Positions 22,535-41,364 of a stretch of DNA of 41,364 nucleotides are shown one piece after another. Position 1 is the stretch's first letter; the number at the start of each line of letters is the position of its first letter. This DNA is from a virus. Taxonomy: Duplodnaviria; Caudoviricetes. The DNA lies in IMG/VR virus record IMGVR_UViG_3300047288_000084, positions 1 through 41,364 of that record. One strand, written 5' to 3'. Position numbers and translations under genes: made by a program. Below the pieces are notes generated by a model, which was not told where the DNA came from, ran no database searches, and saw nothing but the letters and a program-made list of their open reading frames with translations.

Positions 22535-22557
22535 TCTGTCTTCCCGACTAAGCTAGA

Positions 22558-22983: not shown

Positions 22984-22985
22984 AA

Positions 22986-23249: not shown

Positions 23250-23269
23250 ATCACTTCTTTACTTTTCAC

Positions 23270-23298
23270 ACTGTATCATACGAAAATGGTTTTGTCAA
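23270..23298 (-). promoter_or_regulatory. Sigma70-type promoter upstream of ssb/nuclease genes
   Basis: Minus strand TTGACA-17 bp-TACAGT with TGn extended -10. Confidence 0.7.
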
Positions 23299-23359
23299 GT
23301 ATTATTTTCGCATTCCCGAAAGAAAATTCTCAGTCAGGTCTGCCCACCACTCTTCGTCG

Positions 23360-23846: not shown

Positions 23847-24209
23847 CACGTTGTTCAACTAGGTTCGCAAGGCCTAGCCCGTTCTCTTATGAACTGCTAC
23901 ATATTACTATGCAGGTCAGACTATATCATCACTGTATTTCTACAGGTCCACCGCTTCCACCACCATTAGCTTGTGGCGTACTCTCTTTCGAGATAGTCGT
24001 TGCTCTTTCTCGGTACTCTTCTATGTATTTAATTGCTTTATACATCACACTAGTATCTTCTTTAAAAAGACCTAGTGCTCTATTACAATTGTGGCATAGA
24101 AGTTTTCTAGCAGGCTTTTCTAGAAAACATTTTGTACCGAGCTTAGATCAGGATTGTCCATGTTTAATGGAGGTTCCCTGAATTCAATGGATTTATAGAC
24201 ATCCGATTA
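23847..24209 (-). mobile_element. Group I intron (IA2-like, 363 nt) in DNA polymerase motif B
   Basis: P1 GACAUU/GAUGUC with U-G at the 5' splice site; P (UGAAUUCAGGGAA), Q (AAUCCUGAUC), R (GCAACGACUA) and S (AUGAUAUAGUC) elements; terminal G at 23847. Splicing restores AKTF-IYAFLLG. Confidence 0.93.
23929..24130 (-). pseudogene. Remnant of endonuclease VII-type homing endonuclease within the intron
   Basis: RKLLCHNCNRALGLFKED...AIKY fragment in the loop closed by CTCGGTAC/GTACCGAG; out of frame with the ATG at 24130. Confidence 0.8.
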
Positions 24210-25606: not shown

Positions 25607-26274
25607 AATGTGCGATCAACACCGAGATATTCGCAGGCTCTCGAGAAAGGACGCGATCCTAGAAAAGACTGAGAAGGATGTTCATTGACAAAAGAATACC
25701 GAACACCAGGAGAATAGCTTGAAATGACGCAATGACTTTCTCTGTTCCAGATAGCTGGGATGAATCTCTGCGCTTCGGCCCCCCACAGCATCCATACAAT
25801 GCCTTCCCTTTCATACGACAATTTAGACACGATTTCATATGCCAACATCTCCCATCCAATATTTGCGTGACTCTTAGGTTGACCCTTAATTACGGTCGGT
25901 CTGATGTTATGTAGTAGAACCCCGTTCTCGGCCCATGGTGAGAATGTGCGTAGATAGGGAGGTTTAAAACCGAGATCATCACAATACTCGCGAACGATAT
26001 TACGGTAAGCAGGAGAAATAGAACGCTTGCCAGGAGTTTCATCAAATGCTAATCCTGTTGCTCGGCCGTCTGCATACGGCTCACTTCCTAACACGACGAC
26101 TCTAACCTTTTCAGGTGGAGTCAACTCAAAGTCTCTGAAGATTCTGCTGGCAGGTGGGTAGACGTCTCTCAGGTCACCCAGTTTCTTTCGCGTAGACGCC
26201 CACTTAGCTGTGCGAAAGAACTTCAACTGCCCCCAGTCATTCTTAGGTCTGCGTAGAGTTCCCAAGTCAAACAC
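25591..26274 (-). CDS. ung: Uracil-DNA glycosylase family 1 homologue with divergent active site
   Basis: VYPP, VRVVVLGSEPY, ATGLAF, WAENGVLLHN, WMLWG and GSRPFS match the UNG fold. Confidence 0.85.
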   Translation of the reverse strand: MFDLGTLRRPKNDWGQLKFFRTAKWASTRKKLGDLRDVYPPASRIFRDFELTPPEKVRVVVLGSEPYADGRATGLAFDETPGKRSISPAYRNIVREYCDDLGFKPPYLRTFSPWAENGVLLHNIRPTVIKGQPKSHANIGWEMLAYEIVSKLSYEREGIVWMLWGAEAQRFIPAIWNRESHCVISSYSPGVRYSFVNEHPSQSFLGSRPFSRACEYLGVDRTFWRLM

Positions 26275-28744
26275 CAGGATCGAAGTCTGTTACCGTTGGT
26301 TCTTCGACTAGTTCTGCTAGTGTGAATGAAGCGGGATCGAAGTTAAGAACACCGGCTGGGCCAGATAGACCTGCAAAGCGGTTACCTCGAACAGTAAGGT
26401 GTGTCTTATTTCGCTCTTCATACGACGCTGCTTCGATGTCTCGATCCAACGAGATGATTAGGTCAGCAATTTTCGAGATGTTACGACTGCCTCGTGTCTT
26501 ACCATCATCGTTGACGTGACTGACCATGAACAGAGTGAAGTCTAGTTCTCGGGTCATCATAGCTAGACGTGTCGAAATGAAGTCCAGCTTCTTCCTCTCG
26601 TCGTCGTCTTCGAAGCCAGTGACGAGCATCGTAATGTGGTCGAGGAAGATAAACTTACAATGACAGACAGACACCAGATAGCGTATAATGTCCAGAATGG
26701 TGTTAGGGTCATCACTACCGAAGTGAGAGTAGAAATGAAGTCGCCCCTCACGTTTGGTAATAGACTTGTAAGCATTCACCTGATCCTCTACCGAGAGACC
26801 AGAGTCCGGTAGGTGGGCAGGAACGCCCAGCTCATAGCCGATAAGACCCTGGACTGACCGCTTCTCTTCCTCTTCTAGATGAATGATACCGATGTTGAAG
26901 TCGGTGTCTTTTAGAAGATGGTATTCAATGGCTCGCATAACTTCAGTGTTGTGAGTAAGAGTCCAACCTTCTCCTGCTGCAAATAGATGTTCATCATGGT
27001 CGACAGTCAAGCATCTACCTTCAAGATTTCCGATAGGCTCGATCGAACGAATAGCCTTCCACTTAGCCTTTCGATATCTAAACCTGTAGGCGGTCTTACA
27101 TTCGACAAGACTACCGTTAATATCTTTATACTTCCCCACTCTAGGTGCGGATTCAGTAACGATGTAGCCTAGGCTGCGGGCTAACTCTACTACTTGATCG
27201 AAGAGAATCTTATTGCTAGAGTAGAACTCATTCTGTTGTTTACCGTTATTACCAGCCCATCCATCGAAACAAAGACCTTTGAACAACTCCTCTCGTTGCT
27301 TCTTAGAAGCACGAAGATAGTCAAGAGGAATGTGCTTATTACGGTATAGGTCATGCTTCTTCAAGATAGAAGTTTTTAGTGCCATAGGTCTTATGGTATA
27401 GCAGTCATTCCCAGTCTTCTTAAGATACCCAAACTCAAACATAGACATCTTATCTAGTTTCTTTTTAGAAACGGTTATGTAAGTATTCGAACTTTGACCA
27501 TCTGCCAACCAAATACCTAAGAGATAGGGATCGATAGGCAGGTCTTTCTCGGGTAGTTCAACTGCTTCGATATTAGGCACGACGTACTTTGCCTTAGAAC
27601 CTTTAGCAATGATTCCACCTTCAGTGTTATACAACTGCTCGGTATTAAGAATAAGGATGTTATTATTCAAGTCACGAACAGTCCAACGATGGTTATCTCC
27701 AGCCTCTAGGAAAGTTTTGTCTGAGAAGGTTACCTTATAGTAAGGCCTAGTGTGGACTGGTGTTACGTAGGTAACCTTACAGATAGTACCATCTGCCGCA
27801 AATAGATCATCGCCTTCTTTTAGAGCACCTATAGTAGTCCATCCAGTAGGTGTAGGAAGAGGGGTGTTTGTTCGCAAAACCTTCCCCACCTTCTCTTGCG
27901 CGAGAAGAAGAATGACCTCACCCTGACGAATTCCATATGTCATTCCCTGAAGAGTGACAAACGGATAGGAGGCGATAGACACGCCAGACTCTTCGCGAAG
28001 AAGAGCTTCGATAGAGTTGTAGTCTGCGATCACACCCTTTGGCATATAGGGCTTGGCGTTCCACCAGATACGTTTGAACTCTTCCTGCTGTCCAGCAGTC
28101 AGATATTCATTCGCATCCTTGTACCTGTCTAGCTTAACGTGAACGACCTTATTCACGTCGAACAGTTGGGATACATCTTTTACTGCACGCTGTCCAGGTT
28201 CGTCATTATCGAAACAGATGTAGATTTTCTCGAAGGAATTCAAATAGTCTCTAGCCTTCTCGCAGTCCTTTCGTGCGGAAGAAGCTGAGCGAACGGAGAC
28301 AGCCGGGTACTTTGACCCTAGCATTTGGAAGACAGACATTGCGTCCATCTCACCTTCGGTAATGGTCACTGCCTTAGCAGAGCCAGCAGAGAATACGTTC
28401 TGCCCGAACAAGGAACAGTCATTCATTGGTCCGATAGAGAAGAAGTTCTTCTGGTCGAACCGACGTTCCTTCGATGCTGCCTCACCATTTGAAGATAGGT
28501 AAGGAAAGGAAACCGAGACAGGTTTCCCATCGCTATCTACCTTAAACAGCACACCGTAGTTCATAAACGTTTCTTTACTGACACCACGCCAGGGAAAGAC
28601 CTGAGTAGTAAACTGTTCGTTATTCAAATAAGTTACATCCTCTAGGCTACGCCATTTTTGGCATGCAAAACAGAACGAATGGTCTTCGTAGATAGACAAA
28701 GCATCTGAAGACCCACAATCATTACAGGGCTGGTGAGTCTTTAT
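26267..28744 (-). CDS. T7 gp4-like primase-helicase (intein-containing)
   Basis: Zn ribbon HQPCNDCGSSDAL...CFAC, TOPRIM EGEMD/CFDND, Walker A AQEKVGK/T, FLDHI and VSH. The frame extends upstream of the 28699 call to an ATA at 28744. Confidence 0.92.
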   Translation of the reverse strand: MKTHQPCNDCGSSDALSIYEDHSFCFACQKWRSLEDVTYLNNEQFTTQVFPWRGVSKETFMNYGVLFKVDSDGKPVSVSFPYLSSNGEAASKERRFDQKNFFSIGPMNDCSLFGQNVFSAGSAKAVTITEGEMDAMSVFQMLGSKYPAVSVRSASSARKDCEKARDYLNSFEKIYICFDNDEPGQRAVKDVSQLFDVNKVVHVKLDRYKDANEYLTAGQQEEFKRIWWNAKPYMPKGVIADYNSIEALLREESGVSIASYPFVTLQGMTYGIRQGEVILLLAQEKVGKVLRTNTPLPTPTGWTTIGALKEGDDLFAADGTICKVTYVTPVHTRPYYKVTFSDKTFLEAGDNHRWTVRDLNNNILILNTEQLYNTEGGIIAKGSKAKYVVPNIEAVELPEKDLPIDPYLLGIWLADGQSSNTYITVSKKKLDKMSMFEFGYLKKTGNDCYTIRPMALKTSILKKHDLYRNKHIPLDYLRASKKQREELFKGLCFDGWAGNNGKQQNEFYSSNKILFDQVVELARSLGYIVTESAPRVGKYKDINGSLVECKTAYRFRYRKAKWKAIRSIEPIGNLEGRCLTVDHDEHLFAAGEGWTLTHNTEVMRAIEYHLLKDTDFNIGIIHLEEEEKRSVQGLIGYELGVPAHLPDSGLSVEDQVNAYKSITKREGRLHFYSHFGSDDPNTILDIIRYLVSVCHCKFIFLDHITMLVTGFEDDDERKKLDFISTRLAMMTRELDFTLFMVSHVNDDGKTRGSRNISKIADLIISLDRDIEAASYEERNKTHLTVRGNRFAGLSGPAGVLNFDPASFTLAELVEEPTVTDFDPGV
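26948..27880 (-). mobile_element. Intein (311 aa, class 3 WCT-type) with LAGLIDADG-like domain in helicase Walker A
   Basis: Block A VLRTNTPLPTPTGW, block B AGDNHRW, block C DPYLLGIWLADG, block F RCLTVD, block G LTHN/T; inserted between K and T of GKT. Confidence 0.93.
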
Positions 28745-28855
28745 CTTTTCTTACTCCACTCTTGCTTGGTCGGGCATCGCTACGCTCGCCCTCCCTATAC
28801 TCTGCTTCTCTTTTAACTGTATAATAAGTTACCTTTGGGGACATCGGATAACCTT

Positions 28856-28884
28856 ATCATACCATATGAAGAGTGATTTGTCAA
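28856..28884 (-). promoter_or_regulatory. Sigma70-type promoter upstream of primase-helicase
   Basis: Minus strand TTGACA-17 bp-TATGAT. Confidence 0.8.
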
Positions 28885-28908
28885 GTAAAATCGACAGACA
28901 AGAACCAA

Positions 28909-29112
28909 CTATTTCGTAAGCTGTTGATTCTTCAAGGCTTTACAACCACTCTCAAACGTGCAGTTGCACGACTTTTCACTCATGACGTGAGGACAAACTT
29001 CACCTTTGAACAGGTCAGGCATGCGCCTATTCAACTCGTTAAGCGCAGCCTGAACCTGTGTGTAGTCCAGTTCATCCTGCTTCGGCTTCGGGCTTGTACT
29101 TTTCTTTTTCAT
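28909..29112 (-). CDS. Small hypothetical protein
   Basis: 67 aa ORF overlapping the end of the ATP-grasp gene. Confidence 0.45.
   Translation of the reverse strand: MKKKSTSPKPKQDELDYTQVQAALNELNRRMPDLFKGEVCPHVMSEKSCNCTFESGCKALKNQQLTK
28917..28929 (-). promoter_or_regulatory. Putative IHF site
   Basis: Minus strand AATCAACAGCTTA matches WATCAANNNNTTR. Confidence 0.5.
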
Positions 29113-29914
29113 AGAGAACCAAATCTTTCAGGTACTTGGAGTATTTACCGACGAGGTACGGAGTCAACTCCGGAGCAGTGTTCACTTCGAGGATGATTGG
29201 GTTGCCTCCGTTCTTGGGGACGATGATGTCGACACCACCGAAGTCGAGACCGAGGGCTGCGACAATTCTCTTCGCAGCCGGACGGATGCCAGACGGAATG
29301 TCTCCCTCAGAGAGAAGCTTCAGGCCGTAGCCACCTCCAGTCGTCTTCACGTCGTCATTGTAGGAGTCCTTCCCCTCTACGCGAACCTTCTTCTGCACGG
29401 CGAATGCAGAATAGTTGTCGACGACCTCAGGATTGTCCGTGGGAAGGCGGCAGACAGAGACACGATACTCTGCCTTAGCCGGAACGAAGACCGTGTAGAG
29501 CTTGCCTTCCGGCAGGCAATCGGCAGGACCCTTGTGAATGATAAGTCCATCCCCGTCGTGACCGGTAAGCTTCTGACGAACGCAGACGACACCGTCTTTG
29601 TTCATACTCTTAGCCTCGGCGTGACTCTTAGTCCACTTCGGGATGAAGTTGCTGAGCCCCTTGTCGACGAGAGTCTGGAAGGTAGACAACTTGTCGACGG
29701 CGACCTTGACGCAGGAGGGGTTGTTGATGATCTTCAGATCATCGTACCCATCCTTCACCTCTTCGAAGTGGGAGGAGGAACCCCAGTTGATGACGACATC
29801 ACCCTTCTCGGCCTTGAAGAGTTTCATCTTCTTATTCAGAAGAATAGCCCCCATTGCCTCGGCAAGCTGATTCGCGGACTTGGAGTACGACTTGTAGGCC
29901 CGTATCAAGAACAT
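29072..29914 (-). CDS. ATP-grasp ligase (RimK-like, phiEco32/PaP3 type)
   Basis: VINWG, DKLxTF, GHDGDG, EYRV, LGLDFGGVDI and LEVNTAP motifs. Confidence 0.9.
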   Translation of the reverse strand: MFLIRAYKSYSKSANQLAEAMGAILLNKKMKLFKAEKGDVVINWGSSSHFEEVKDGYDDLKIINNPSCVKVAVDKLSTFQTLVDKGLSNFIPKWTKSHAEAKSMNKDGVVCVRQKLTGHDGDGLIIHKGPADCLPEGKLYTVFVPAKAEYRVSVCRLPTDNPEVVDNYSAFAVQKKVRVEGKDSYNDDVKTTGGGYGLKLLSEGDIPSGIRPAAKRIVAALGLDFGGVDIIVPKNGGNPIILEVNTAPELTPYLVGKYSKYLKDLVLYEKEKYKPEAEAG

Positions 29915-29916
29915 CT

Positions 29917-30819
29917 CTAATCTCCGAAGGCGTCAGTAGATGTGGTGAAGTTCTCACCGTGAGAGTCGGCAGATTGGTTTTGCAATGCGATTACGTCTTT
30001 CTGCCACTGACTCCAGTCGTCAACTGCGAAGGCAAGAGAGCCGATGATACGACGACTGCGGCGACAGAGGTGATAGTAGTCCTTGTACGCCGCCAGCTTG
30101 GAGACGAACGAAGACGGGAGAACCTGCAAGAGGAAGGAGTCCTTCTGCGAGTCGAGGTACTGTTCGAAGACCTTGGAAGGGTCGTCGAAGTTCTTCGCTG
30201 CCGTGTTGACGAGATGGTGGACGGCAGTTGCCCACTCATGGATCACATCGGGGTCGATTGTCGACCGCATACCGCGGAACTCGAGAGAATTGATCGAGGC
30301 AATAGTCGCCAGATTGATTGATCCGTACTTGAACGTATCCTTATGGAAGTTGAAGAAACTCTTCCTCTCCTGACAGGAATTCATGACGAGCAGGGCGGTC
30401 GCAGGAGAGGAGCTGAGACGAAGACAGAAGTGATTGTTGTAGCGGGTCGGGCCGCAGTACAGCATCATCACATCTTCGATCAGCCAGTACGCGACGACTG
30501 CGTTGAGCACTTGAACTGCCGTGAGATGACCGACGTTGACATGAACGTGGACCGAAGCTCGTTCGTTGCCATCGTCGACGTTGCCGGTAGCCGAGAGAGC
30601 ATCAGTAAGCTGCTTGATCTTCGGGAGAAGAGTCGGACCGACTTTGAACGGCTGACGAGCGATCACCTCGATCCCGTTCTTCAGTGAAGGATCATTGGTA
30701 ACCAACCACGACGAGTCGACCTGGATGTCGGTTGGGGTACCGGGAAGAAACTCCACCTCCACTTCGATACCAACATCGCCGTTCTTCGACGCTTTGTTGA
30801 AGTACTTGCTCAACTGCAT
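29917..30819 (-). CDS. Putative amidoligase (glutamine-synthetase-like COOH-NH2 ligase)
   Basis: VGIEVEVE, WxxxxDPSL, GIE, SVHVHVN and SLEFR motifs. Confidence 0.85.
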   Translation of the reverse strand: MQLSKYFNKASKNGDVGIEVEVEFLPGTPTDIQVDSSWLVTNDPSLKNGIEVIARQPFKVGPTLLPKIKQLTDALSATGNVDDGNERASVHVHVNVGHLTAVQVLNAVVAYWLIEDVMMLYCGPTRYNNHFCLRLSSSPATALLVMNSCQERKSFFNFHKDTFKYGSINLATIASINSLEFRGMRSTIDPDVIHEWATAVHHLVNTAAKNFDDPSKVFEQYLDSQKDSFLLQVLPSSFVSKLAAYKDYYHLCRRSRRIIGSLAFAVDDWSQWQKDVIALQNQSADSHGENFTTSTDAFGD

Positions 30820-30846
30820 GTCTGCTCTCCTGAGGCAGTGATGAAG

Positions 30847-31485
30847 CTAGTTGATCTTGACGCCAGCAGACTCAAGGTCTTCACCGAAGACACGAGTCAA
30901 CCGCTTGTCGAAGACAGAGAAGGTCTTTCCCTTGTTGATAGAAGCCCCGATGATCCGACCACACGCAGCAATCTTGAAGATGTTCGGGTCATCCGAGATG
31001 ATAGCGATGTCCTTCCCGAGCAGTGCCACCCCGTTATCAACGACGGCGTCTGTGGAGAAGGACTTGATGAACGACGTCTTTCCAAGCAAGACCTTGTAGT
31101 GCTCCACGCTGTAGAAGTGCGAGCTACTAGAGTAGCTCTTCGCAGGATTCGAGTGATGAAGGAAGGTAGTATTCGAAACGTGGACGCCGTGCTGTGTGAC
31201 TCGAGCCGGGAGACGAGACGAGAACAAGAGCTTCCCGTAGTTGACGAAGTATCCGTAGCCAAGGTCGAAGTCGAGATCGTCATTGTTGACGTACGAGATC
31301 GTCATAGACCCTTGCGGCGAGAAGTAGTTGGGGTTGGGGTCGATGCTTACCGGTGTGATGTTGATCTTGTCGAGAGGCGTGTTGCTCTTCGCTTCGATCT
31401 GTTGCAACACACCCTTGTACTTACAGAAGACGCCGTTCAGGCGACGAAACTTGTCGTCCTGCCCGTAAAAGATAGAAAGACCCAT
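30847..31485 (-). CDS. Hypothetical protein in the ligase operon
   Basis: AAGGAAG RBS; 212 aa; co-oriented. Confidence 0.75.
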   Translation of the reverse strand: MGLSIFYGQDDKFRRLNGVFCKYKGVLQQIEAKSNTPLDKINITPVSIDPNPNYFSPQGSMTISYVNNDDLDFDLGYGYFVNYGKLLFSSRLPARVTQHGVHVSNTTFLHHSNPAKSYSSSSHFYSVEHYKVLLGKTSFIKSFSTDAVVDNGVALLGKDIAIISDDPNIFKIAACGRIIGASINKGKTFSVFDKRLTRVFGEDLESAGVKIN

Positions 31486-31501
31486 GTTATCTTCCTTTCG
31501 T

Positions 31502-32437
31502 CTAGACGATGATGAGAGGAGAGTCGAGGGTAGGAGGACCTAAATACTTGCCGCCGACCGAAAACGGCACGTCGAGATCGAGATCGTAGTTGACCGTTCC
31601 AGATGTCGGTGCGATGCGAGCACCCCTCTGAATGTTCTTCGAGACGGTATCTGCGTAGAAAAAGTAGTCCCCGACCGGCGTCATCTTTTGTGGGATGTGG
31701 GTAATCAACGAGTCGCCGTTGATGATCCTTTGCATTCGAGACTTCACAGCATCGAACAGGACTCTGGTGAGGTGGTCGCTCTTCATCCACCAGTTCGAGG
31801 GAACACGCCACTCCACGCCGTAGCTCTTCGGCCGGAAGGAACCGAGCTTGCCGTACATCTTCTCGCGAATGAAATCCTTGTCGGCCTTTTTCAGGAGCTG
31901 CTCATAGAGAGAGCAGTCGAGAAGACGGACGACAGTCCTACAGTCCCACAGATGACTGATGTCGGTGACATCGGCGTCACTGGTCCAACCGATGTGAATG
32001 TGACCAGAGCAGGTGCGAAGAGAGGGAAGGCCGACGATGGGCTCGGGTGGAGGGTTGATACCTCCGGAGTGCCATGCGTCGAAGTCCGGGCTGCATCCCA
32101 GCATCTTCACTTCTTCGGGGAGTGAGTCGAAGTAGCCGGGGTCGAAGACGATGACCGGCTCGAAGATGAAGTTGTACCGATCCTCCGGCAACCACTTGCG
32201 AAGTTCAGCCAGCACCTTGTTCTTGTTGCTGATGAACTGGTCGGCAGTCTCAGCCGGATCGATATTGATCTCGACCATCAACCCATCCACCTGGATGGCA
32301 CCGCCGTTGACCTTGTGAGGCTCGTTCTTCGTGCCGGGGATGAGGTCATGAGCAGAGACCAGACGGTTGATCTTCTTGTCGAAGACGCCGAACTCAGGGT
32401 CTGCTCCGATGAGAATCTTGCTGATCGTCTTGGACAC
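31502..32437 (-). CDS. phiEco32-like COOH-NH2 ligase type 2
   Basis: IGADPEF, QVDGLMVEINIDP, GCSPDF, RTCSGHIHIG and YGxxGSFRPKSYGVEWR; likely GTG start at 32437 after AAGGTGGAG. Confidence 0.88.
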   Translation of the reverse strand: MSKTISKILIGADPEFGVFDKKINRLVSAHDLIPGTKNEPHKVNGGAIQVDGLMVEINIDPAETADQFISNKNKVLAELRKWLPEDRYNFIFEPVIVFDPGYFDSLPEEVKMLGCSPDFDAWHSGGINPPPEPIVGLPSLRTCSGHIHIGWTSDADVTDISHLWDCRTVVRLLDCSLYEQLLKKADKDFIREKMYGKLGSFRPKSYGVEWRVPSNWWMKSDHLTRVLFDAVKSRMQRIINGDSLITHIPQKMTPVGDYFFYADTVSKNIQRGARIAPTSGTVNYDLDLDVPFSVGGKYLGPPTLDSPLIIV

Positions 32438-32450
32438 GGTCGGCTCCACC

Positions 32451-33659
32451 TTAGCAGAAACCTTTTCGGCAGACAAGCTCTTCTTCCCAAGGGGCGGTTG
32501 CTTCTTCGGGAACGGGCTTGCGTACCCAGTGAGAGTAGTCGAGAATCCCTTCGTAGGCTTCTTTGAAGTAGCTGTAGAAGAGGGGCTCTTTTTCTTTGCA
32601 GGTTTGGCAGACGTAGGCTGAGTTGTTGAACCAGAAAGCTTTGCCATATTGCGTGACCTTTGTTGTGCAGAATGAACAGCCATTGTTGAGGAGCGTGTTA
32701 GCCTTGGCCAACGTCATAGTCTTTCCTCTGTACGCTCGGTACATCGGAACGTTCTCGATCTGATCCGGCTTCTTGGAAGCAGGACCGATCACCGCAGGGA
32801 CAGAGCCCGTAGACGCAGTTACCGCAGTCTCTGGCGCGCTGCCTTTCTCTGCTGTTTTCGAAGCAGCCTCCGCTCCCTCTTTGTTAAGAAAGCCGACACT
32901 GCTTATCGACGTGTGCTCGCCCCCTTTCTGTGACGAAGTAGAAGCAGAGTAGGACACCGTCGTTTTCGTCAGAGAAACTGGATCGTCGATGTCCCACGAG
33001 AACAGCGTCATAGACGGGACGACTAGAATCTGTGCCGTCGCCTGTGAGATTGCCGATCTGCTGCGAACCAGATCGAGGAAGGCGTACTCAGATGCGTAGT
33101 AGAACACCTGGTTGAAGATCATGTAGTAGAGAGGACGCTTGTCATTCCGAACCAGGTTGAACGTGCGGTCCTTCAGGTCGGTGTAGGCCAGAGCAAAGGC
33201 ACCGGAGTAAGGAAGCATCGACAGTGTAGGCTTCAGCCCGAACTCGTTGATACTTTCGAACAACTCTTCCGAGTCCGTTTTACCACCGCCTCCCAGCCCT
33301 TCGATGGTCCCGTTGTGCATACCAACAAGTTCGTTGTTGATGTTGAACGGATGGGCGTTGTCATCGACGATGCTGCCCTTTGTCGCATGACGACAGTGAC
33401 CGGCGAAGATCATGATGTCGGAGCGGTTGAACAGCTTCGACCCCTCACCGTTCCCGAGAAACTGCGACGCAGAAACTGCCTGCTTCTTGACGATCAGACC
33501 CCTTCCCTTGGCATTCTCACGAGTGATGAGAAAGGCGCCAGCACTGTGGAGTCCACGCAACTGGGAGACAATGAACAGATCGAAAACTCTCTCCCTCTCA
33601 ATAATGGAAAGGGTTGGTGTGCTCCCAGACATCACCACTGCACCAGCTAGACCACACAT
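32451..33659 (-). CDS. Class II (Ntn) glutamine amidotransferase with C-terminal Zn-finger
   Basis: MCG N-terminus, RGxHSAG, GHCRHATKG, NAHPF, HNGTI, TDSE and YASE; C-terminal CSFC...CQTC. Confidence 0.92.
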   Translation of the reverse strand: MCGLAGAVVMSGSTPTLSIIERERVFDLFIVSQLRGLHSAGAFLITRENAKGRGLIVKKQAVSASQFLGNGEGSKLFNRSDIMIFAGHCRHATKGSIVDDNAHPFNINNELVGMHNGTIEGLGGGGKTDSEELFESINEFGLKPTLSMLPYSGAFALAYTDLKDRTFNLVRNDKRPLYYMIFNQVFYYASEYAFLDLVRSRSAISQATAQILVVPSMTLFSWDIDDPVSLTKTTVSYSASTSSQKGGEHTSISSVGFLNKEGAEAASKTAEKGSAPETAVTASTGSVPAVIGPASKKPDQIENVPMYRAYRGKTMTLAKANTLLNNGCSFCTTKVTQYGKAFWFNNSAYVCQTCKEKEPLFYSYFKEAYEGILDYSHWVRKPVPEEATAPWEEELVCRKGFC

Positions 33660-33681
33660 TTCTTTTCTCCTTTTCTACCTC

Positions 33682-34332
33682 TTAGTTGAAGAGGTGTCGG
33701 TAGAACAGTTCTTCGAACAAGTCGAACGAAGGACCGTCCTCCCACTCTGGATGCCACTGAACCCCGAGGAAGTTCTCATGCAGGTAGTAGAACGCCTCGA
33801 CGTCGCGCCAGTCGCCGCTCTTGAACCGCTTCTCATCGGTCTCATGGTACGTACTGATGTTGGCGACAGCGAGCAGCTTCGCATTGTCGTTGATGACACA
33901 CATCTGGTGGTGGTCCGAGTTGACGACCGACATCTCCTCCCCCAGCTTGAAGTCATCGTCGAAGAAACGAATGCCGTGCCGACTGCCTCGATGGCAATCG
34001 ACATCTTGGTAGAGGCTGCCGCCACACAGAACGTTTCCGAGCTGTGCCCCTCGGCAGATGCCGACCTTCGGAGTCTCCGGACTGAGAGACTTCCAGAGGG
34101 AAATCTCTTTCAGGTCTCGTGTCGGGTTGGGGAACGTCTTGGCATGTCGCTTCTGACCGTAGATGAACGGATGGATGTCCGAGCCTCCGGTGAAGAAGAC
34201 GATGTCGGGGAACGTCTTGTCGACAGACGATTCGTCGATGACGTTGAACCCCATCCTCTTCACCATACGCACGGTATCGGCGTCATTGTCGGAAACGATT
34301 GCGTTGAGAATCACATTGGTCTTCACTGCCAT
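33682..34332 (-). CDS. Class I glutamine amidotransferase-like / peptidase C26 (gamma-glutamyl hydrolase)
   Basis: TGGSDIHPxxY, GICRGAQ, NSDHHQ and GVQWHPE (Cys-His-Glu triad); start approximate (ATG at 34332 or 34347). Confidence 0.9.
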   Translation of the reverse strand: MAVKTNVILNAIVSDNDADTVRMVKRMGFNVIDESSVDKTFPDIVFFTGGSDIHPFIYGQKRHAKTFPNPTRDLKEISLWKSLSPETPKVGICRGAQLGNVLCGGSLYQDVDCHRGSRHGIRFFDDDFKLGEEMSVVNSDHHQMCVINDNAKLLAVANISTYHETDEKRFKSGDWRDVEAFYYLHENFLGVQWHPEWEDGPSFDLFEELFYRHLFN

Positions 34333-35234
34333 GCAAGAGCCCTCCATTCGGACCTGTTCTTCAGAAGAAAGCTCACAGCCTCAGAAGATGAGACGCACGA
34401 GCCGGCGGTAGTATTGAAGTCCTTGACGTTGAGCGACAAAACGTCAGGGAACAACCCGCTGTAACTAGGCTTGCCGGTGAGATTCTTCGAGAAGTAGCTG
34501 GAGATGTTGGTGCCGTGCCACTTTGAACCGACCGGGCCGTAGGAACCGCTTTTGGTGTACGGAGCAGGATTCGCTTGGATGTCCGGATCGCTCTCTTCGA
34601 GCCGGCGGAGAGAAATGCCAGATTCGAGGCGGTCGAACAGGTGAGTGTACGTTTCACCAGAGAGTGAGAGAGAGCCGTTGACGTGGACAGAAATGTACTC
34701 GGCCAGAAGGATGGATTCGGGGCGAGTGAATCCATTGCGTCGCCACAGCCAGTACGACCGAATCTTGTTGCTCATCTCCTGCGGGACGCGAGCACCGATC
34801 ATGATGTTGGTCAGCACCTGGGCTGAGACAGTGCTGGTGTTGAACGTACCGACAGCAAGAGGGCGGCCGATCTTGTCGCGGAGGATGACGATGTCATCCG
34901 CCTTAAGGTACTTGGCGAAGGGGCCACTCTTTGTGTCCGTCAGATAGTCCCAGTAGTCGACGGCTGCCTCGTAGAGATCGGGGTAGCGGCACCACAGCGA
35001 CGAGAAGACGCCACGATTCGAGCCAAAAAAGAAGCCCAACGTCGCGTTATGGCAACCGATGCCAGGCATCGTCTTGATTTTTCCATCTCCGTCGATCTTC
35101 CGAAGATTCGCGGAACCCTTCTTCGCGCCGAAGTACTCCGGGTAGTCACTCTCATAGTAGGAAGAGAGTTCCTTGATCAGACCCTGAAGTTCTTCGGTGC
35201 CTCCTGCGGAAGCAGTACTAGTCTTTGCATTCAT
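34323..35234 (-). CDS. Hypothetical protein heading the ligase operon
   Basis: AAGGAG RBS, 303 aa, overlaps the C26 gene. Confidence 0.8.
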   Translation of the reverse strand: MNAKTSTASAGGTEELQGLIKELSSYYESDYPEYFGAKKGSANLRKIDGDGKIKTMPGIGCHNATLGFFFGSNRGVFSSLWCRYPDLYEAAVDYWDYLTDTKSGPFAKYLKADDIVILRDKIGRPLAVGTFNTSTVSAQVLTNIMIGARVPQEMSNKIRSYWLWRRNGFTRPESILLAEYISVHVNGSLSLSGETYTHLFDRLESGISLRRLEESDPDIQANPAPYTKSGSYGPVGSKWHGTNISSYFSKNLTGKPSYSGLFPDVLSLNVKDFNTTAGSCVSSSEAVSFLLKNRSEWRALAWQ

Positions 35235-35387
35235 GGGATTGCTCCTTGCAAAACAATTAGTTATCGGCAGTCTGCATAAAAAAGGAGGAAAGAGACGGCA
35301 GGTAAAGGAAGACCGTTGCCTTCGATCACCACCTATCTCTTTCCTCCAGTTGGCCGGGGTAAACGGAGAGGAAAACCCCCGGCAGCG

Positions 35388-35723
35388 TTACGAATTAACG
35401 TCCTTCACCTTCGGAGCCGGAAGGTGAGTGCCGACGTTGTAGATGTTCTCACTGTTCTTCTCGCGCGCCTTCTTCTTCGAGAAGAGAGACTTGATCGAGG
35501 CGAACAGGGAATTCTGGATGACCTCCATCTTCTTCGAAGCACGAACATGGACGTCGTGGAACGACGGCTCACCGTCTTCACCATCCTCCTGAAGAGTGAG
35601 GACGGCAGTCTCGACGGTGCGGGCGACAGGAAGTTCGATGATCGTCGCCGACCGGACAGTGAACGTCTTCTTGCCCTGCTTGACCTTATCGCCGGGCTTC
35701 AAGTTCTTAGCGTTGATCTTCAT
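35388..35723 (-). CDS. Hypothetical basic protein (SH3/KOW-like N-terminus)
   Basis: MKINAKNLKPGDKV after GGAGAG RBS. Confidence 0.7.
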   Translation of the reverse strand: MKINAKNLKPGDKVKQGKKTFTVRSATIIELPVARTVETAVLTLQEDGEDGEPSFHDVHVRASKKMEVIQNSLFASIKSLFSKKKAREKNSENIYNVGTHLPAPKVKDVNS

Positions 35724-35973
35724 CAGTCTCTCCAATCTTGGATGTCTTCGGTACTACCATCAAGCGATGCCGCCGGGGTCCGTTCTTACGAACGTGATAC
35801 CCTTTGACGACAGCTTCACCTGAATAATTACCGGCTTCATCCAAGGTCGGGGTGACGGACCAAAGAACGTGAAAGCCGGGACGAACCTCACCCTGCATCA
35901 AACGCCGTTGGGTGAGAAAATACAAGTAGTTATCAGACGATTGCAACAACCACTCTGCATATTTGGAAATCAT
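35707..35973 (-). CDS. Hypothetical protein
   Basis: ATG with GGAGAG RBS just downstream of the putative ncRNA. Confidence 0.5.
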   Translation of the reverse strand: MISKYAEWLLQSSDNYLYFLTQRRLMQGEVRPGFHVLWSVTPTLDEAGNYSGEAVVKGYHVRKNGPRRHRLMVVPKTSKIGETDEDQR

Positions 35974-35989
35974 CTTCGTCTCTCCGTCT

Positions 35990-37060
35990 TGGTTTGTTCT
36001 TTAGTTATTGCTGAAAGTGAGAAGGCAGTAGCCCTCCCCGAAAGGCCACTAGTTCGACCGAACGGGAAGGGCTAACCTCATTACTATGACTCACGACCAT
36101 CTCGGGCTGAAGCAACCTGCTTGTACTTCACAGGTCACAACATTAAAAGCACCGCAATCGCACTGCGGTTGAGTACCTAGTCTCATCTTGTGGACGATGT
36201 TTGTCATAGCGTCTGTCTCGTCGATAATTCCTAACTCGATAGAAGCTGAGAGCTTCTACATCACCTGTCGCACCCACGTTACGAGCACTGAGCCATACCG
36301 GTTGGAACGGATTAGGCAGTGATGGTATAGGAATGTTACTACATAGTGGGCGGTCTGCTATGTTTTCAAGACAGACGAGCGTTTTCCACTCAGTTGCAGT
36401 TCTACGAAGACAGACCGTCGATAGTCAGTCTAAGCAACCACGTACTTCGCTAGCTCAGGGTTTTCACGCCCCTTATAACTTTTCAGTAGAAGAAAGACAT
36501 GACTCTTCTCCATTCATTTTCCTTTGCTGGCACCACAGATTACGATGAGCAGACGTCACGGCCCTCGCCGTATCTTGGGGTAAGACACCCCGTATGCCTA
36601 CCAGTGAATAGCCTAGTCTAACCCGAAGACCTTCAGCCTTCTCCACCTTTAAGACATACCGTCTTCTCTCATAACAAGGGCGCTCCTCTCAAAAGAAAAC
36701 TACAGGAGGCCACACCGCAGACTTACCTTTCCCCTCCCCACCACGGAAGTTCATGGACTCCATTAGGCTAGAGGTCTCGAACCTGAGGGTACTGATGCAT
36801 ACGGTGTCCACTGCCTCAACGTACTACCCGCCACGGTAATAGTACGAGAGGAAGACAAAACAACTGCTCCAGTGTGCAACACAGACCTAGTTACTGAGCT
36901 TGTCTTACAGACGGTTCGTTGTGCTAAGCACCAGCGAAGACAGTTTCTTAAGCTGCCAAGGCCGTTTTTGCGAACACCCAGTAGTTCATCCTACTCTGTC
37001 GTGCACACACAGATAGGAATACCTAGACCTTTACCGGCCACACACTGAAGCAGTTGTAAC
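35990..37060 (-). ncRNA. Candidate large structured non-coding RNA (~1 kb), family unrecognised
   Basis: No minus-strand ORF of 60 aa or more; more than 15 helices including long-range ones. Imperfect pairs repeatedly read as G-U on the minus strand and A-C on plus. Confidence 0.7.
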
Positions 37061-37666
37061 TCAAGCGGCGAGCTGTTGCTTCGCCACGAAATCCTTATAG
37101 TTCGGACCTGCGATCATCGGTGTGACCGGACGACTGATGTTCGCCCCGGTCTGCCGATTGCGAACGACGAACCGCTCAGCAGGGTCGCATCCCAACTGGG
37201 ATGGCTCGAGTCCAGTGCGGTTCTTCACGAACATGATGATCTTCTCGCTCGTCGTGGACCGCATCCTGACGTACTTTCCGAAGTACGGCCACGCCCTCTT
37301 CAGAGAGGCGCACGCCTCCCCCATGGACGGATAGACCAGGACGGACCCGTTGGGAAGGAGCACCTCGTACCCCTTCGCCTGCGGAAAAGGGAGAGGATCG
37401 ACGCCGACCTCCTTCGGCACCTTCACCTGCTTCACCTCGCCGGTGCCGAAGAGAACAATATCCTTCGTCTCCGACTTGGGCTTGACGTTGGCGTAGGGGT
37501 GCGTCTTCGTGTCGAAGGAGACGAACTTCTTCGAGTCGTAGACGATGCCGAAAAGCCGGTACTCATACCGGTCAGTGTAGGGGTTCCACCCCTCGGCAAG
37601 AACACCCTTGGAGCGAAGGTACTGCGCGACCTTCCAGGTGAAAGAGTTGTAGTTCTTCGTAGTCAT
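37061..37666 (-). CDS. Hypothetical early protein
   Basis: AGGAG RBS, strongly biased codons, 201 aa. Confidence 0.8.
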   Translation of the reverse strand: MTTKNYNSFTWKVAQYLRSKGVLAEGWNPYTDRYEYRLFGIVYDSKKFVSFDTKTHPYANVKPKSETKDIVLFGTGEVKQVKVPKEVGVDPLPFPQAKGYEVLLPNGSVLVYPSMGEACASLKRAWPYFGKYVRMRSTTSEKIIMFVKNRTGLEPSQLGCDPAERFVVRNRQTGANISRPVTPMIAGPNYKDFVAKQQLAA

Positions 37667-37711
37667 TGGTCTTCTCCTGTTTGTTTTGTAGGGTTAACGT
37701 TCTTCGATCAT

Positions 37712-37939
37712 CTACGCAGCACTGGCCGTAAGGATTTGCACCTCGGCCATGTTGATGGCCTTGTCGATGCGCTCCTTCTTCTTATTGTAGATGGTGTTCT
37801 TCATCTCGACCGGCTTGAAGCCCAGCGAGTGAAGCTTCTTCGCGAAAGCCTCTTCCATCTTCAGAGACATCGCTGTCTGCCGTCGTCTCAGGACGTTGTT
37901 GTTGACGATGCGGCAGTACATGTGATCGTAGTGAATCAT
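37712..37939 (-). CDS. Hypothetical early protein
   Basis: ATGA overlap with the upstream gene. Confidence 0.65.
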   Translation of the reverse strand: MIHYDHMYCRIVNNNVLRRRQTAMSLKMEEAFAKKLHSLGFKPVEMKNTIYNKKKERIDKAINMAEVQILTASAA

Positions 37940-38310
37940 TCGATTGCCCTCTCTTCAATTGTGAAAGTACCCTTCACTCGGTATACCTTCTCGACGATAG
38001 TGAACACACCACCCCGAATGTCATGCCCTCTCCCGGTAAAAACGTTTACCGCATTTCGAATACTCTCGAAGCTCGCGTCTTCACCAACCGAGACAGATGC
38101 GTCGTCGAAGAAGATAAAATACTCCTTCTTCTTCAGTACGTCAGCCTGATCGGCCTCGTATTCGAACGACTCGACACCGTTGGCTTTCTTAGCCGATAGT
38201 GACAGGAGAGTCGGCCAATCAAGGTGGTTGCAGTATCCCTTCGGATTCCTGACGGCAATCGGCCCGTGGCAATACTTACAACAGGGCTCATCGTTAGTCT
38301 GTTCAAGCAT
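37936..38310 (-). CDS. Hypothetical protein with N-terminal CxxC...CxH metal-binding motif
   Basis: CKYCHGPIAVRNPKGYCNHL; overlaps both neighbours. Confidence 0.65.
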   Translation of the reverse strand: MLEQTNDEPCCKYCHGPIAVRNPKGYCNHLDWPTLLSLSAKKANGVESFEYEADQADVLKKKEYFIFFDDASVSVGEDASFESIRNAVNVFTGRGHDIRGGVFTIVEKVYRVKGTFTIEERAIE

Positions 38311-38830
38311 GCTCGTAGTCCTTCATCCATCCGGGTTTCTGTCGAGAAGTCCACCGATGCATGATGCGACCACGGCGGTCAGACTTCTTCGCGATGGTGT
38401 AGTACCTGCGGTAGCTGTCGATAGTGTTGACGCTACCGTCCTTATCGAACGACTTGTAGTCGTCGGGCATCACAGCCGGAGGTTCATTCCAAACATCGAG
38501 AGACAGGTCAGCAGGCATGCGAGCAAGCTGCTTGTTGATACCCTTCCTGACGATGTAGTGCGTCTTCCCATACCGATACTCGTACTCGTGGCAGTAGCAG
38601 CACATCAAAGAGTGCAGCCATGCGTAGTGGATACCGCTTTTGCGGACCCACTGAGTACAGGGATGCGAGAAGACAGACTTCGGGAACGGGTAGCCGAAGC
38701 CATCCGTTCTGATTGGTGAGTGTGCAGCAGTCAACATCTGCGCTGATTCGATTGCCATCTTGTTGACGTGGCTGTCAATTGCCCACTCAGCGACATCTGC
38801 CGGGCAAGTCGAAAGATAGAAGATGTTCAT
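38303..38830 (-). CDS. Pyrimidine-dimer DNA glycosylase-like (DenV-related) protein
   Basis: MNIFYL...DSHVNKMAIESAQML, HPCTQWVR, EYEYRYGKTH and SYRRYY. Confidence 0.75.
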   Translation of the reverse strand: MNIFYLSTCPADVAEWAIDSHVNKMAIESAQMLTAAHSPIRTDGFGYPFPKSVFSHPCTQWVRKSGIHYAWLHSLMCCYCHEYEYRYGKTHYIVRKGINKQLARMPADLSLDVWNEPPAVMPDDYKSFDKDGSVNTIDSYRRYYTIAKKSDRRGRIMHRWTSRQKPGWMKDYEHA

Positions 38831-38854
38831 CCGTTTCTCTTTCCTCGGCGCCGG

Positions 38855-38983
38855 CTAAAGGGTGAGGAAGAGAAGCCCAGCCTGGAAGCCGACCAGAAGG
38901 AAGGCGACGTGGGTGATGATGAGGACGAGTGCGGTTTCGAAGTGGGACATGCTGACGTTCTCCTTGTTGTCATCGTCGAACAT
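38855..38983 (-). CDS. Small membrane peptide (42 aa)
   Basis: AAGGA RBS; single hydrophobic helix ALVLIITHVAFLLVGFQAGLLFLTL. Confidence 0.5.
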   Translation of the reverse strand: MFDDDNKENVSMSHFETALVLIITHVAFLLVGFQAGLLFLTL

Positions 38984-39001
38984 TGTGTTGATCCTTTTTC
39001 T

Positions 39002-39298
39002 CTATGCCATCTCCTTCAGTTTCCTGACGATCTCGGTGTTCTTCTCGTCTTCGTCCGACCAAAGCCACGAGTGTAGGCTAAGTCCATACTGTCGAACAGT
39101 CTGGCCAACCTTGACGACACCGAGATGGCAAACCTTAAAGACGCAGTGAGGATCACCCACCTGATACGAGCGATCCAATGCCTTGTCGATTGCGTCTCCC
39201 TTCGCAGGGAACGTCTCTTCATAAAATGGTGAGCTACCACCGATTGGGTCCTCCCTTCCGATGAAGTAGAGTTCGATGTCTTTCCAGACGGACATCAT
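39002..39298 (-). CDS. Hypothetical early protein
   Basis: Likely start MMSVWKD after GGAG. Confidence 0.65.
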   Translation of the reverse strand: MMSVWKDIELYFIGREDPIGGSSPFYEETFPAKGDAIDKALDRSYQVGDPHCVFKVCHLGVVKVGQTVRQYGLSLHSWLWSDEDEKNTEIVRKLKEMA

Positions 39299-39622
39299 TG
39301 AATCTCCGTTGTTTGTAGTAGAGGATTGTTTAAGTCCACCCATCTATTGAATAGACCGACATGTAATCATGTCGCTGAGCTACCCCGCTGCGGGAACCCA
39401 GGGGTGGAAAGGAATGGGGTGTGGGTAGACACAGAAGCTAAGAGCGGTGAGGCTTTCCTCTCTTTGCTTCTTGTCGTGTGAAACGGTCAGCTACCCCACA
39501 TATAGCTGCCTCCTCCCCCCTACGGGGGATAGTGTTGGCTCAATTGGTTCGCTCGGGTACCCCTCGCTCACCTTACTATACTATCCATTCTTAATTAACC
39601 CTCCGCATACACAGGTATCTTT

Positions 39623-39650
39623 ATTATACACCTGTTCGCAGATTTGTCAA
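39623..39650 (-). promoter_or_regulatory. Consensus sigma70 early promoter
   Basis: Minus strand TTGACA-16 bp-TATAAT. Confidence 0.85.
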
Positions 39651-39682
39651 GAGAAAAATGCAAGCGATCAACAAGTATTTTG

Positions 39683-39695
39683 TAACTCATTGATC
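39683..39695 (-). promoter_or_regulatory. Putative IHF site
   Basis: Minus strand GATCAATGAGTTA, near match to WATCAANNNNTTR. Confidence 0.45.
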
Positions 39696-39711
39696 TGCAA
39701 GCATTAATTCC

Positions 39712-39945
39712 CTAGCTCTCTCGCCTTTCACCCAGCACCTCGCCAAACCATTGGTTATTCGCTGCTTCGACCAGCTTGTCGCAGACAAACGTCGTCGCAT
39801 ACTTGTAGTTGACGCCGTTGAACCTGTTCTTCACGACATCATGCAGTCCGTCGGCGACCTCGACGAAGATGAAATCAGCTTCCGCGATCTCCGCCTTCGT
39901 CAGCTTTTCGGAATAGCTGTCAAGCCAGATGACTTTAACTTTCAT
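39712..39945 (-). CDS. Hypothetical early protein
   Basis: Likely start MKVKVIW after GAGGA. Confidence 0.65.
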   Translation of the reverse strand: MKVKVIWLDSYSEKLTKAEIAEADFIFVEVADGLHDVVKNRFNGVNYKYATTFVCDKLVEAANNQWFGEVLGERRES

Positions 39946-40229
39946 TTGTTGCTTCCTCTCTCCGTTATTAAGGTTAGATAATAGACACACCATCTTCATC
40001 TCGATGACGATCAGCCCGACCGCATTATAGGCTTCGTTTCATCGGGGAGAGAGACAAGACAGTGTGTCTATTGCCTAACCTTTGCTACCCTTCTATTCAG
40101 AATAGCGATTGCTGCCCTAACGAAGCCCGTACACGGGCATTCTTCCTTCTCTGGTAGGGAGACAGCCAGAGACAGTAAGTGCCGATGTACGGGCTTCTTA
40201 ACGGGGGGTAGTTCTTGCGTGGTCGGCGA

Positions 40230-40916
40230 TCAGTTCACGCTGATAGCGTTGTCGGCAACCTTCTTCGTCGCAATCTTCTTCGTCACAGCCGGGATCGAAA
40301 TGACATCGGCGTCTTTGTTCGACGACTTGAGCATTGACCGAAGCGTGTTGATGTCGGCCTTCTGGACGATGACCTTCTCGCGATCCTCATCCGAGAGGGG
40401 GAGACCCTTCAATTCCTTGCCGGTGGCGTAGATGCCGCTCTCATAGTCCTCGGCCTGAGCCAGCAGGGCAGCCAACTTCTTGCGCAGGTCGAACCCCTGG
40501 AAGGGATTGGCAGGCTTCGACATCTCCCAGTAGTTTTTCGCTTTCAGCAGCATCTCGATGTAGCTGCCGATGTTCTCGCGATCATCACCTTTCGGTGTGA
40601 CCGGGCCGGCGAATTCCGCAGCACGTTTTGCTGAGAATTTGAAGCCGTCCGTCACCGTGAACGAGACCGGAGCGAACTCCATGAGCCAGCGAGCAACGTT
40701 GTTGTCGTGCGTCATGGTCTTCGTCTCGGCGAAGAGCCGTTGCAGCGGACCGATCTGGCCCGTCGAACATGCGAAGATAGAGACGGCGATCAGTGTCTTG
40801 TGCATCCGTGTCCGCCACGTCTTGGCGTCGAGGATGATATTGTCGACCATGTTCTCGACCGTCTTGAGGTCTCGCGGAATCATGTCCGCTTCGTTCTTCG
40901 TCTGAGCTTTCTTCAT
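40230..40916 (-). CDS. Hypothetical early protein
   Basis: GGAGG RBS before MKKAQTK; host-like codon bias; ~228 aa. Confidence 0.8.
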   Translation of the reverse strand: MKKAQTKNEADMIPRDLKTVENMVDNIILDAKTWRTRMHKTLIAVSIFACSTGQIGPLQRLFAETKTMTHDNNVARWLMEFAPVSFTVTDGFKFSAKRAAEFAGPVTPKGDDRENIGSYIEMLLKAKNYWEMSKPANPFQGFDLRKKLAALLAQAEDYESGIYATGKELKGLPLSDEDREKVIVQKADINTLRSMLKSSNKDADVISIPAVTKKIATKKVADNAISVN

Positions 40917-41364
40917 AGTAAAACCCTCCATTGTTTAGTGCAAGGTTCGCCGATGAATCGGACAAGCGTTGCAGCCAAACAACGGAAGATGATGAAGCTT
41001 GGTTAAAAGATTATGTTATCGCTCCCCTTCCTATCGAATGGTTACTTCGCCGATTGGATAGTCGGAGGCTTTTCGCCGTCGATAGGAAGGGGAATGATCC
41101 GCAATAGAATAGACAAGGCAAGGCGCTCTTAGCGGGACCAACCTAGCGAATAGCTAGGCCAGAGCGCTGGCCTCTACCTTGTCGCCCCGCATGGCACGAT
41201 CTATTGCGGATCGGTTCCAGCGCTAGCGGAGCGCTGCCGACGGGGGCGACGCAAGAAACGTCGGGCCTGGAGGCCTTTATCCCGCTACCGCCCTAAATAC
41301 GGTAGCAATGCCCCGTTGCAGGGGCTATGTTGCGCGGACTGACCGCTGCCTCGAAGGGACAAGA

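Follow-up and report, generated by a model that had tools for sequence, protein, structure and literature searches.

The gap of about 1 kb between two early genes of a phage genome very probably carries an RNA structure that is maintained by selection. Together with its counterparts in two other virus records it constitutes a new three-member RNA family of about 0.7-1.07 kb in which a T-loop module is conserved and for whose structure there is partial support. By analogy with GOLLD and ROOL we propose, at a probability of roughly 0.45, that the gap may encode a structured RNA of about 1.05 kb which is cut from the early transcript and acts in trans as a stable GOLLD/ROOL-like particle, its tRNA-like T-loop arm being a decoy for host tRNA-binding proteins. 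An earlier note on this DNA had called the gap a large structured non-coding RNA of the minus strand which belongs to no known family. Conservation in the two relatives and a weak hint from RNA-seq support this description; the argument from G-U pairs, on which the note also relied, does not.

Genomic setting of the gap

The window analysed is the whole of a 41,364-base IMG/VR virus record, linear and 83% complete. Its capsid protein is 53% identical with that of roseophage SIO1, and we take the phage to be Zobellviridae-like. All sampled words of 35500-37600 are present in four freshwater runs, from which the phage may stem. The minus-strand arm contains a phiEco32-type operon of glutamine amidotransferases, a COOH-NH2 ligase, an amidoligase and an ATP-grasp-like ligase, and small early genes are located upstream of it. 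The gap extends on the minus strand over 35974-37060, i.e., between the upstream stop at 37061 and the downstream start at 35973. In the window and in both relatives, L002 and L003, it sits 0.7 kb upstream of the operon. All sense-strand ORFs within 35974-37060 are at most 57 aa long, and the gap of about 1 kb is thus as real as first described. To call the genome wall-to-wall was an overstatement: the early arm has further gaps, e.g., 39344-39711 and 40000-40229. The ORF upstream of the gap has no Pfam family match at E<=1; a NUMOD-like lead with a low score of 0.78 is all that emerged. No promoter-like site was found on the minus strand in the gap. The elements which define the setting are:

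39623-39650, minus strand: perfect sigma-70 promoter consensus, 2.6 kb upstream of the predicted RNA; likely source of the precursor transcript
37061-37666, minus strand: upstream ORF, 201 aa, directly before the predicted RNA; homologue in the same position in L002
36010-37057, minus strand: predicted large structured non-coding RNA, ORF-free; the first stem and the 3' arm of helix X serve as its presumed ends
35707-35973, minus strand: downstream ORF, 88 aa; homologue in the same position in L002

Several other elements of the window deserve mention in their own right. An ORF-less group I intron is present in the gene of the family A DNA polymerase (23897-24256, minus strand). The primase-helicase (26267-28699, minus strand) has an insertion of about 310 aa (about residues 274-584) of intein-like appearance, which is also found in L003 and is absent from L002. 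Further non-coding stretches of the early arm fold strongly, 39901-40229 and 40801-41364, with tile z-scores of -8.7/-9.0 on both strands at 39901-40200 and of -5.4 at 40801-41100. ARAGORN calls a tRNA-Leu at 3316-3404, within the portal gene and antisense to it; as no tRNA model matches there, the call is probably spurious.

Conservation in two relatives

Loci for comparison were collected by profile scans with the ligase (57 loci), the amidoligase (80), the primase (80) and the first gene of the operon (3). Among 240 loci, many of them fetched through operon genes, a homologous gap exists in two records only, both of distant Zobellviridae-like phages:

L002, 5578-6644: homologous gap, 1067 nt, ORF-free; flanked on both sides by homologues of the window's neighbouring ORFs
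L003, 6310-7043: homologous gap, 734 nt, ORF-free; same gene position

The next downstream gene in L003 is a 115-aa homologue, that in the window and in L002 the 88-aa ORF. Similarity of the gaps was scored as chains of colinear exact matches of at least 7 nt and compared with 300 dinucleotide shuffles. The chain score of the window and L002 is 46.1 (shuffles 22.2+-3.8) and that of L002 and L003 39.7 (18.7+-3.7), values which none of the 300 shuffles reach; for the window and L003 it is 27.8 (18.8+-3.4), reached by 5 of 300. Four-fold degenerate sites in six neighbouring genes are identical at 120 of 453 (26%) and 150 of 473 positions (32%), which amounts to saturation. Identical blocks of 12-22 nt in the gap side by side with saturated silent sites indicate purifying selection on the gap. 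A small ORF with a ribosome site common to the three gaps was not found.

The folding energies favour the sense strand in two of the three genomes. On the sense strand the z-scores are -3.16 for the window, -2.64 for L002 and -4.04 for L003. In the window, the strand-specific comparison which the earlier note had called for yields -3.16 on the minus versus -1.09 on the plus strand (36000-36999, 20 shuffles each). The antisense strand of L002 is weaker than its sense strand (-1.05); that of L003 is as strong (-4.58).

Long-range helices recur at homologous positions more often than in block shuffles. The counts for the three pairs of genomes are 32 versus 18.3+-4.7 (0 of 80 shuffles), 20 versus 12.6+-4.1 (4 of 80) and 26 versus 16.5+-4.6 (2 of 80), with anchors which were picked by hand and include the flank of helix X. 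These numbers stem from the version of the test which replaced a loose and too permissive one. Four helices are common to all three genomes: P1, X, the one which the U-rich linker can form instead with the purine arm, and a further helix; 4 of 40 shuffles also reach four. As the family has only three members, covariation at the level of R-scape is beyond its reach.

The family appears to be small. Profiles of the three members identified no further member among the 240 loci. Motif scans of IMG/VR returned only L002, L003 and chance matches (5 of 7 in one scan, 2 of 4 in another), and a motif scan of GTDB genomes returned no match. Metagenome contigs provided two matches: L072 is identical to L003, and L071 agrees with L002 in length and profile score. 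Searched by blastn against cultured phages, the gap of the window gave three matches of 37-44 nt at E 0.03-0.4, which we take as chance, and the gaps of L002, L003 and L031 gave none. Chain scores of the gaps of L037, L031, L014, L022 and L043 are not above shuffles. L037 had been considered as a fourth member on grounds of synteny and of a T-arm plus D-arm; this was rejected, as 52, 190 and 38 of 300 shuffles reach its chain scores.

Hints of expression

Two wastewater libraries from one study, described as RNA-Seq although this kind is flagged as a guess, share a few words with the stretch. Over 21400-41364, runs X14 and X16 each have one contig of at least 95% identity (1 of 19 in X14, 1 of 7 in X16), and both are located in the gap. 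These are also the only contigs of at least 99% identity over that range:

36705-36900: contig of RNA-seq run X14, depth 2.9
36305-36497: contig of RNA-seq run X16, depth 15.5

The DNA runs X13 and X15, found in the same way, cover 20 of 30 and 16 of 30 bins, a comparison in which gaps in contig cover prove nothing. Among the listed runs which contain the stretch none is on record as RNA. The X14 and X16 contigs are a weak hint of expression and only a hint, because the search that picked out the runs used 35500-37600, roughly half of it gap, and because the contigs are short and come without strand or ends.

Anatomy of the predicted RNA

Read in the sense of transcription, the predicted RNA comprises the following elements:

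37037-37057, minus strand: 5' arm of P1, starting 3 nt past the upstream stop codon; 21-bp stem, p 0.96
36930-36939, minus strand: CUUCGCU segment, 5' side of a candidate long-range pseudoknot; 10 bp with 36445-36454
36860-36880, minus strand: 3' arm of P1, closing a 5' domain of about 200 nt
36852-36864, minus strand: U-rich linker after P1, which can pair instead with the purine-rich arm of helix X, at homologous places in the three genomes
36764-36785, minus strand: T-loop module AGG-UUCGAGA-CCU followed by GCCUA, like a tRNA T-arm and acceptor strand
36658-36668, minus strand: purine-rich 5' arm of helix X
36609-36618, minus strand: GACUAGGCUA, which may pair with (U)AGCCUA into a back-to-front acceptor-like stem
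36445-36454, minus strand: AGCGAAG segment, 3' side of the candidate pseudoknot; AGYGAAGU in all three genomes
36182-36189, minus strand: AAGAUGAG motif, common to L002; present in L003 as AAGAUGA
36101-36109, minus strand: CAGCCCGAG motif, common to L002; single-copy in both genomes
36029-36074, minus strand: 3' hairpin with a 12-bp stem, p 0.99
36019-36029, minus strand: 3' arm of helix X, closing a domain of about 640 nt; preceded by GGGCUAC, as in L002

In all three genomes no more than about 10 nt separate P1 from the upstream stop. P1 closes a 5' domain of 120-200 nt and is followed by the U-rich linker and then by an extended hairpin. The 17-bp stem 36860-36876/37041-37057 of the original description is part of P1, which extends it to 21 bp. 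Helix X is positioned at 36668-36658/36029-36019 in the window, at 5887-5897/6456-6466 in L002 and at 6637-6649/7001-7013 in L003. It was recovered as a three-genome helix in the test of homologous positions. Found after the fact, it has shuffle p values of 0.0375 (window), 0.0275 (L002) and 0.0005 (L003); with the register set by hand, 28 of 30 cells are paired and 6 of 10 columns are changed on both sides. The candidate pseudoknot has the same 7-nt core on both sides in L002 and is not in register in L003; its CUUCGCU segment also reappeared at homologous positions in the long-range helix test. Three key motifs were checked and are single-copy in the window.

The T-loop module is the most conserved element. 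It is identical in 22 of 22 positions between the window and L003, and 12+5 positions are invariant in three genomes, AGGUUCGAGACC..GCCUA being the invariant motif in the window, L002 and L003. Within the module GGTTCGAGACC occurs once in each genome. A later GACUAGGC(U/A) in the window and L002 complements GCCUA, with a compensatory change from A-U to U-A between them. Taken alone this acceptor-like helix is not significant (p 0.20 and 0.56), it appears in the ensemble of neither the window nor L002, and the distal UAGGC was not found in L003. The likeness to tRNA has further bounds. The T-stem has only 2-3 bp, and in RNAalifold the invariant 20-mer becomes a plain hairpin, which removes the T-loop. 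CCA does not follow GCCUA in any of the three genomes; there is no clear D arm and, in L002, no convincing D-loop GG.

Folding of the single sequence

The helices drawn from the window alone exist as written, yet carry little of the argument. In each of the six helices for which coordinates had been given, every position is a Watson-Crick or G-U pair on the minus strand, and the sub-helix motifs are at their places. Stems of at least 9 bp number 22 in the gap as compared with 20.0+-4.6 in 30 shuffles. Four 300-nt tiles of the gap have z-scores of -2.3, -1.3, +1.1 and -3.1 and are no better than neighbouring early-arm tiles, which range down to -3.9 to -8.7. Arguments for the gap RNA from single-sequence folding are weak.

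The same applies to strand asymmetry. The earlier note held that imperfect positions which are G-U on the minus and A-C on the plus strand betray selection on the minus-strand RNA. Such a position is indeed present in 7 of the 12 listed helices; as a signature of strand selection it had to be abandoned. Among near-perfect stems, 70 in the gap versus about 51 in shuffles, G-U and A-C stand at 43:27, and 15 mononucleotide shuffles produce 30.7:20.5. Since composition-matched shuffles have the same ratio, it reflects G/C = 1.27 on the minus strand.

The compound long-range helix 36804-36764/36615-36590 pairs as reported, but it does not appear in the ensemble at p>0.15. It competes with a long rod, 36708-36508, and forcing it results in -361.5 versus -386.6 kcal/mol for the best fold, a cost of 25 kcal/mol. 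Thus, it is either a pseudoknot or one fold among several alternatives. AGUA, suggested as a loop-E element, occurs eight times in the gap and nowhere within the exact matches common to the window and its relatives.

Comparison with known RNA families

No Rfam family matches 35700-37400 at E<=10, GOLLD and ROOL, which the earlier note had named as a possible class, included. In the L002 and L003 loci Rfam returned only miRNA-type or off-gap chance matches, and in L037:2900-4100 nothing.

According to PMC12286853, very few non-coding RNAs of more than 600 nt are known from bacteria and phages. GOLLD and ROOL are phage RNAs which form RNA-only cages, and their functions are open; GOLLD binds ribosomes. 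GOLLD (RF02032) is described there as large (many over 800 nt), multi-domain, phage-encoded and variable in length, sometimes with linker tRNAs. The gap RNA is likewise large, multi-domain, phage-encoded and variable in length. At about 1.05 kb it is longer than a typical GOLLD, and the 416-position RF02032 model, to which the conserved 3' domain of GOLLD corresponds, has no match at E<=10 in any of the genomes G000 (the window), G001 and G002. GOLLD is often near tRNA genes and reaches high levels at lysis. No tRNA island was found around the gap RNA: the tRNA model matches nothing in G000 or G002 and in G001 once, about 3 kb upstream. ROOL is described in PMC5737381 as an ornate RNA of phages or prophages in which pseudoknots span long distances; the gap RNA would share this character. 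ROOL (RF03087) has six junctions and three pseudoknots and averages 581 nt; the lengths of the gap RNA are 734-1075 nt. It yielded 0 matches at E<=10, the weakest of the negative results because no positive control matched either.

Back-to-front tRNA-like order has precedents. In YrlA, which PMC4201824 also reports from phages, a T stem-loop is followed by an acceptor-like stem and then by a D stem-loop. The candidate module of the gap RNA has the same T-then-acceptor order. It differs from the YrlA of RF02553, a model of about 114 nt with a Ro60/TROVE neighbour and a GNCGAAN0-1G motif: RF02553 has no match in G000-G002, and a Ro60/TROVE gene was found in 0 of 4 records with positive controls, G000 being 83% complete. 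Two-piece tmRNA is permuted as well; its T-arm and acceptor 3' strand precede the acceptor 5' strand. Two-piece tmRNA (RF01849) has a tRNA-like domain ending in CCA and a tag frame; the gap RNA is without CCA, and the gap has neither a tmRNA call by ARAGORN nor a match to RF01849. Type A RNase P (RF00010) has 0 matches in G000-G002, with positive controls. Group I and II introns have no Rfam match at E<=10 in 35700-37400; the same library recognizes the intron of the polymerase gene.

The gap RNA resembles the large ornate phage RNAs as a kind: it exceeds 600 nt, is ORF-free and has conserved long-range helices, if in three members only. By this analogy it probably works like GOLLD or ROOL without being a member of either. 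Searches of the literature on large ornate phage RNAs and on non-coding RNAs of Zobellviridae returned no description of this family. Neither motif and neither relative's sample number occurs in six supplementary files of PMC10690425.

Proposed function and alternatives

How might such an RNA operate? Transcription would start from the host-type promoter at 39650. Because the gap has no promoter-like site on its minus strand, the RNA would have to be released from the early transcript, conceivably by nucleases which cut at the long stem of P1 and close to the 3' hairpin. During transcription the U-rich linker would pair first with the purine arm of X and later be displaced. The folded RNA may then consist of three domains (5', T-loop and 3'), which helix X and the UUCGCU/AGCGAAG pseudoknot would tie together, and it could possibly oligomerise. 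A back-to-front elbow, made up of the T-arm, the acceptor-like strand and its later partner, might bind host factors which recognise tRNAs, for instance anti-phage tRNA nucleases or the ribosome. A decoy role is suggested by the T-loop as the most conserved element and by the analogy to GOLLD, which binds ribosomes and sometimes carries tRNAs.

The conserved pair of mutually exclusive helices suggests another, possible if less probable, reading: a giant leader or switch acting in cis in the early transcript, whose purine arm would, by its choice between two partners, govern read-through, processing or stability of the middle genes that follow. Both pairings recur at homologous positions in three genomes, the RNA has the same sense as the polycistronic arm and is directly upstream of the operon, and a terminator-like hairpin is located at 36169-36151; yet the 11 terminator-like sites found compare with 6.9+-2.7 expected. 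In the window and L003 about 30-45 nt lie between the 3' arm of X and the start codon that follows, but in L002 about 180 nt. Further, the next gene is not the same in the three genomes (the 88-aa ORF or, in L003, the 115-aa homologue), the ribosome site is not part of a conserved helix, and the contigs from the RNA runs originate from the gap and not from the flanking genes. It is unlikely that the phiEco32-type peptide-ligase/amidotransferase operon uses the gap RNA as a partner, which the earlier note had contemplated, or as a scaffold or substrate. The constant distance of 0.7 kb in all three genomes would fit, as would the unrelated T-arm-bearing structured gaps upstream of the same operon elsewhere, i.e., a second family with at least 8 loci and L037. 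However, the family is restricted to two other records among 240 loci, and the first operon protein, for which no RNA-binding fold was found, belongs to a wide phage family of 223 representatives. The partnership is left unsupported because relatives possess the operon without this RNA: L083, L093 and L160 have the first operon gene and not the RNA before it, and L004 has no upstream gap of at least 500 nt.

An element acting at the level of DNA, such as a replication origin or an entry or protein-binding site with hairpins which is transcribed incidentally, is quite unlikely. PMC5737381 provides a precedent in the ARRPOF and GEBRO motifs, large structured motifs which can be tied to replication regions; moreover, L003 folds equally well on both strands and the G-U bias is compositional. 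Against it, the sense strand folds better in the window (-3.16 versus -1.09) and in L002 (-2.64 versus -1.05), the sequence of the tRNA-type T-loop is invariant, the three key motifs are single-copy in the window, and pieces from the RNA runs map there. A degenerate self-splicing intron or mobile RNA, perhaps connected with the upstream ORF, could be imagined in a genome with a group I intron, an intein-like insert in the primase-helicase and a NUMOD-like lead (0.78) in that very ORF. Since no Rfam intron model matches the gap at E<=10, the flanking ORFs are intact and separate in the window and L002, and the upstream ORF has no Pfam match at E<=1, we consider this very unlikely. Least probable of all is a neutral spacer with helices by chance. 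Stem counts and local z-scores, which are not exceptional, would permit it; motif chains and a 22/22 match kept across genomes with saturated silent sites do not, and the chain scores largely refute it.

Extending the preferred reading of a trans-acting particle, one may speculate, on analogy and with considerable doubt, about a new class of RNA-only machines of about 1 kb, longer than typical GOLLD or ROOL, in small lytic Zobellviridae-like phages. The particle might display back-to-front tRNA elbows that would sequester anti-phage tRNA nucleases of the host, or translation factors, and could be one of several independently evolved T-arm RNAs in the same slot before the peptide-ligase operon. 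Besides GOLLD and ROOL the gap RNA would constitute a third, unrelated phage family of about 1 kb, located in compact lytic genomes of 41-49 kb where space is costly. It offers a fresh target for cryo-EM by which one can ask whether giant phage RNAs in general form cages and contain tRNA-like modules, the 734-nt version of L003 being a natural minimal form. Unrelated T-arm RNAs recurring in the same genomic slot point to a shared, as yet unexplained need in early infection.

Other elements upstream of the operon

A confident model (pLDDT 92) of the first operon protein (34323-35234, minus strand), which represents an unnamed family, has no PDB match by sequence or Foldseek. VIA-align gave a best Z of 4.4, with scattered rows of the guanidino-kinase/ligase type. 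Among these weak matches, at Z 3.3-4.4, are McsB, arginine kinase, PafA and glutamate-cysteine ligase. As a lead, the protein may be another degenerate member of the ligase fold. Structural relatives are present in the phages CVT22 and CW02.

Upstream of the ligase operon in related phages we observed a second structured RNA family, which consists of a 6-bp T-arm and a CCAY/RUGG hairpin. Its loci are:

L018:5503-5581; L022:266-343; L031:7055-7132; L044:7305-7379; L041/L042; L019:6943-7016; L046:6661-6730
Weaker loci: L024/L026; L043; L040

Every one of the 40 cells is paired, 4 of the 10 pairs differ in both partners, and the covariation score is reached in 0 of 500 shuffles. The family comprises at least 8 loci, those outside the training set being matched at E 1e-8 to 1e-14, and it has no meaningful Rfam match. 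A likeness to the window RNA (GCCU..GAGUCCAU) raised the question of homology, which was rejected: both the HMM and the covariance model miss the gap.

L037 has an ORF-free gap of 1 kb in the same gene position (2970-3994) with a textbook back-to-front tRNA elbow of its own, a T-arm followed by a D-arm at about 3050-3108. It has a weak full-length YrlA score (E 0.118) and no TROVE gene, and it is not homologous to the window RNA. A third non-coding family, conserved in blocks of 70-90% identity and likewise found upstream of the operon, is represented by L014:5950-6630, L017:386-1015 and L023:4100-4490; in L014 and L023 it has no Rfam match at gathering score. Finally, L160:335-2200 contains repeated intergenic elements between early genes, one of about 29 nt occurring twice and one of about 24 nt several times, which are probably promoters or protein-binding sites.
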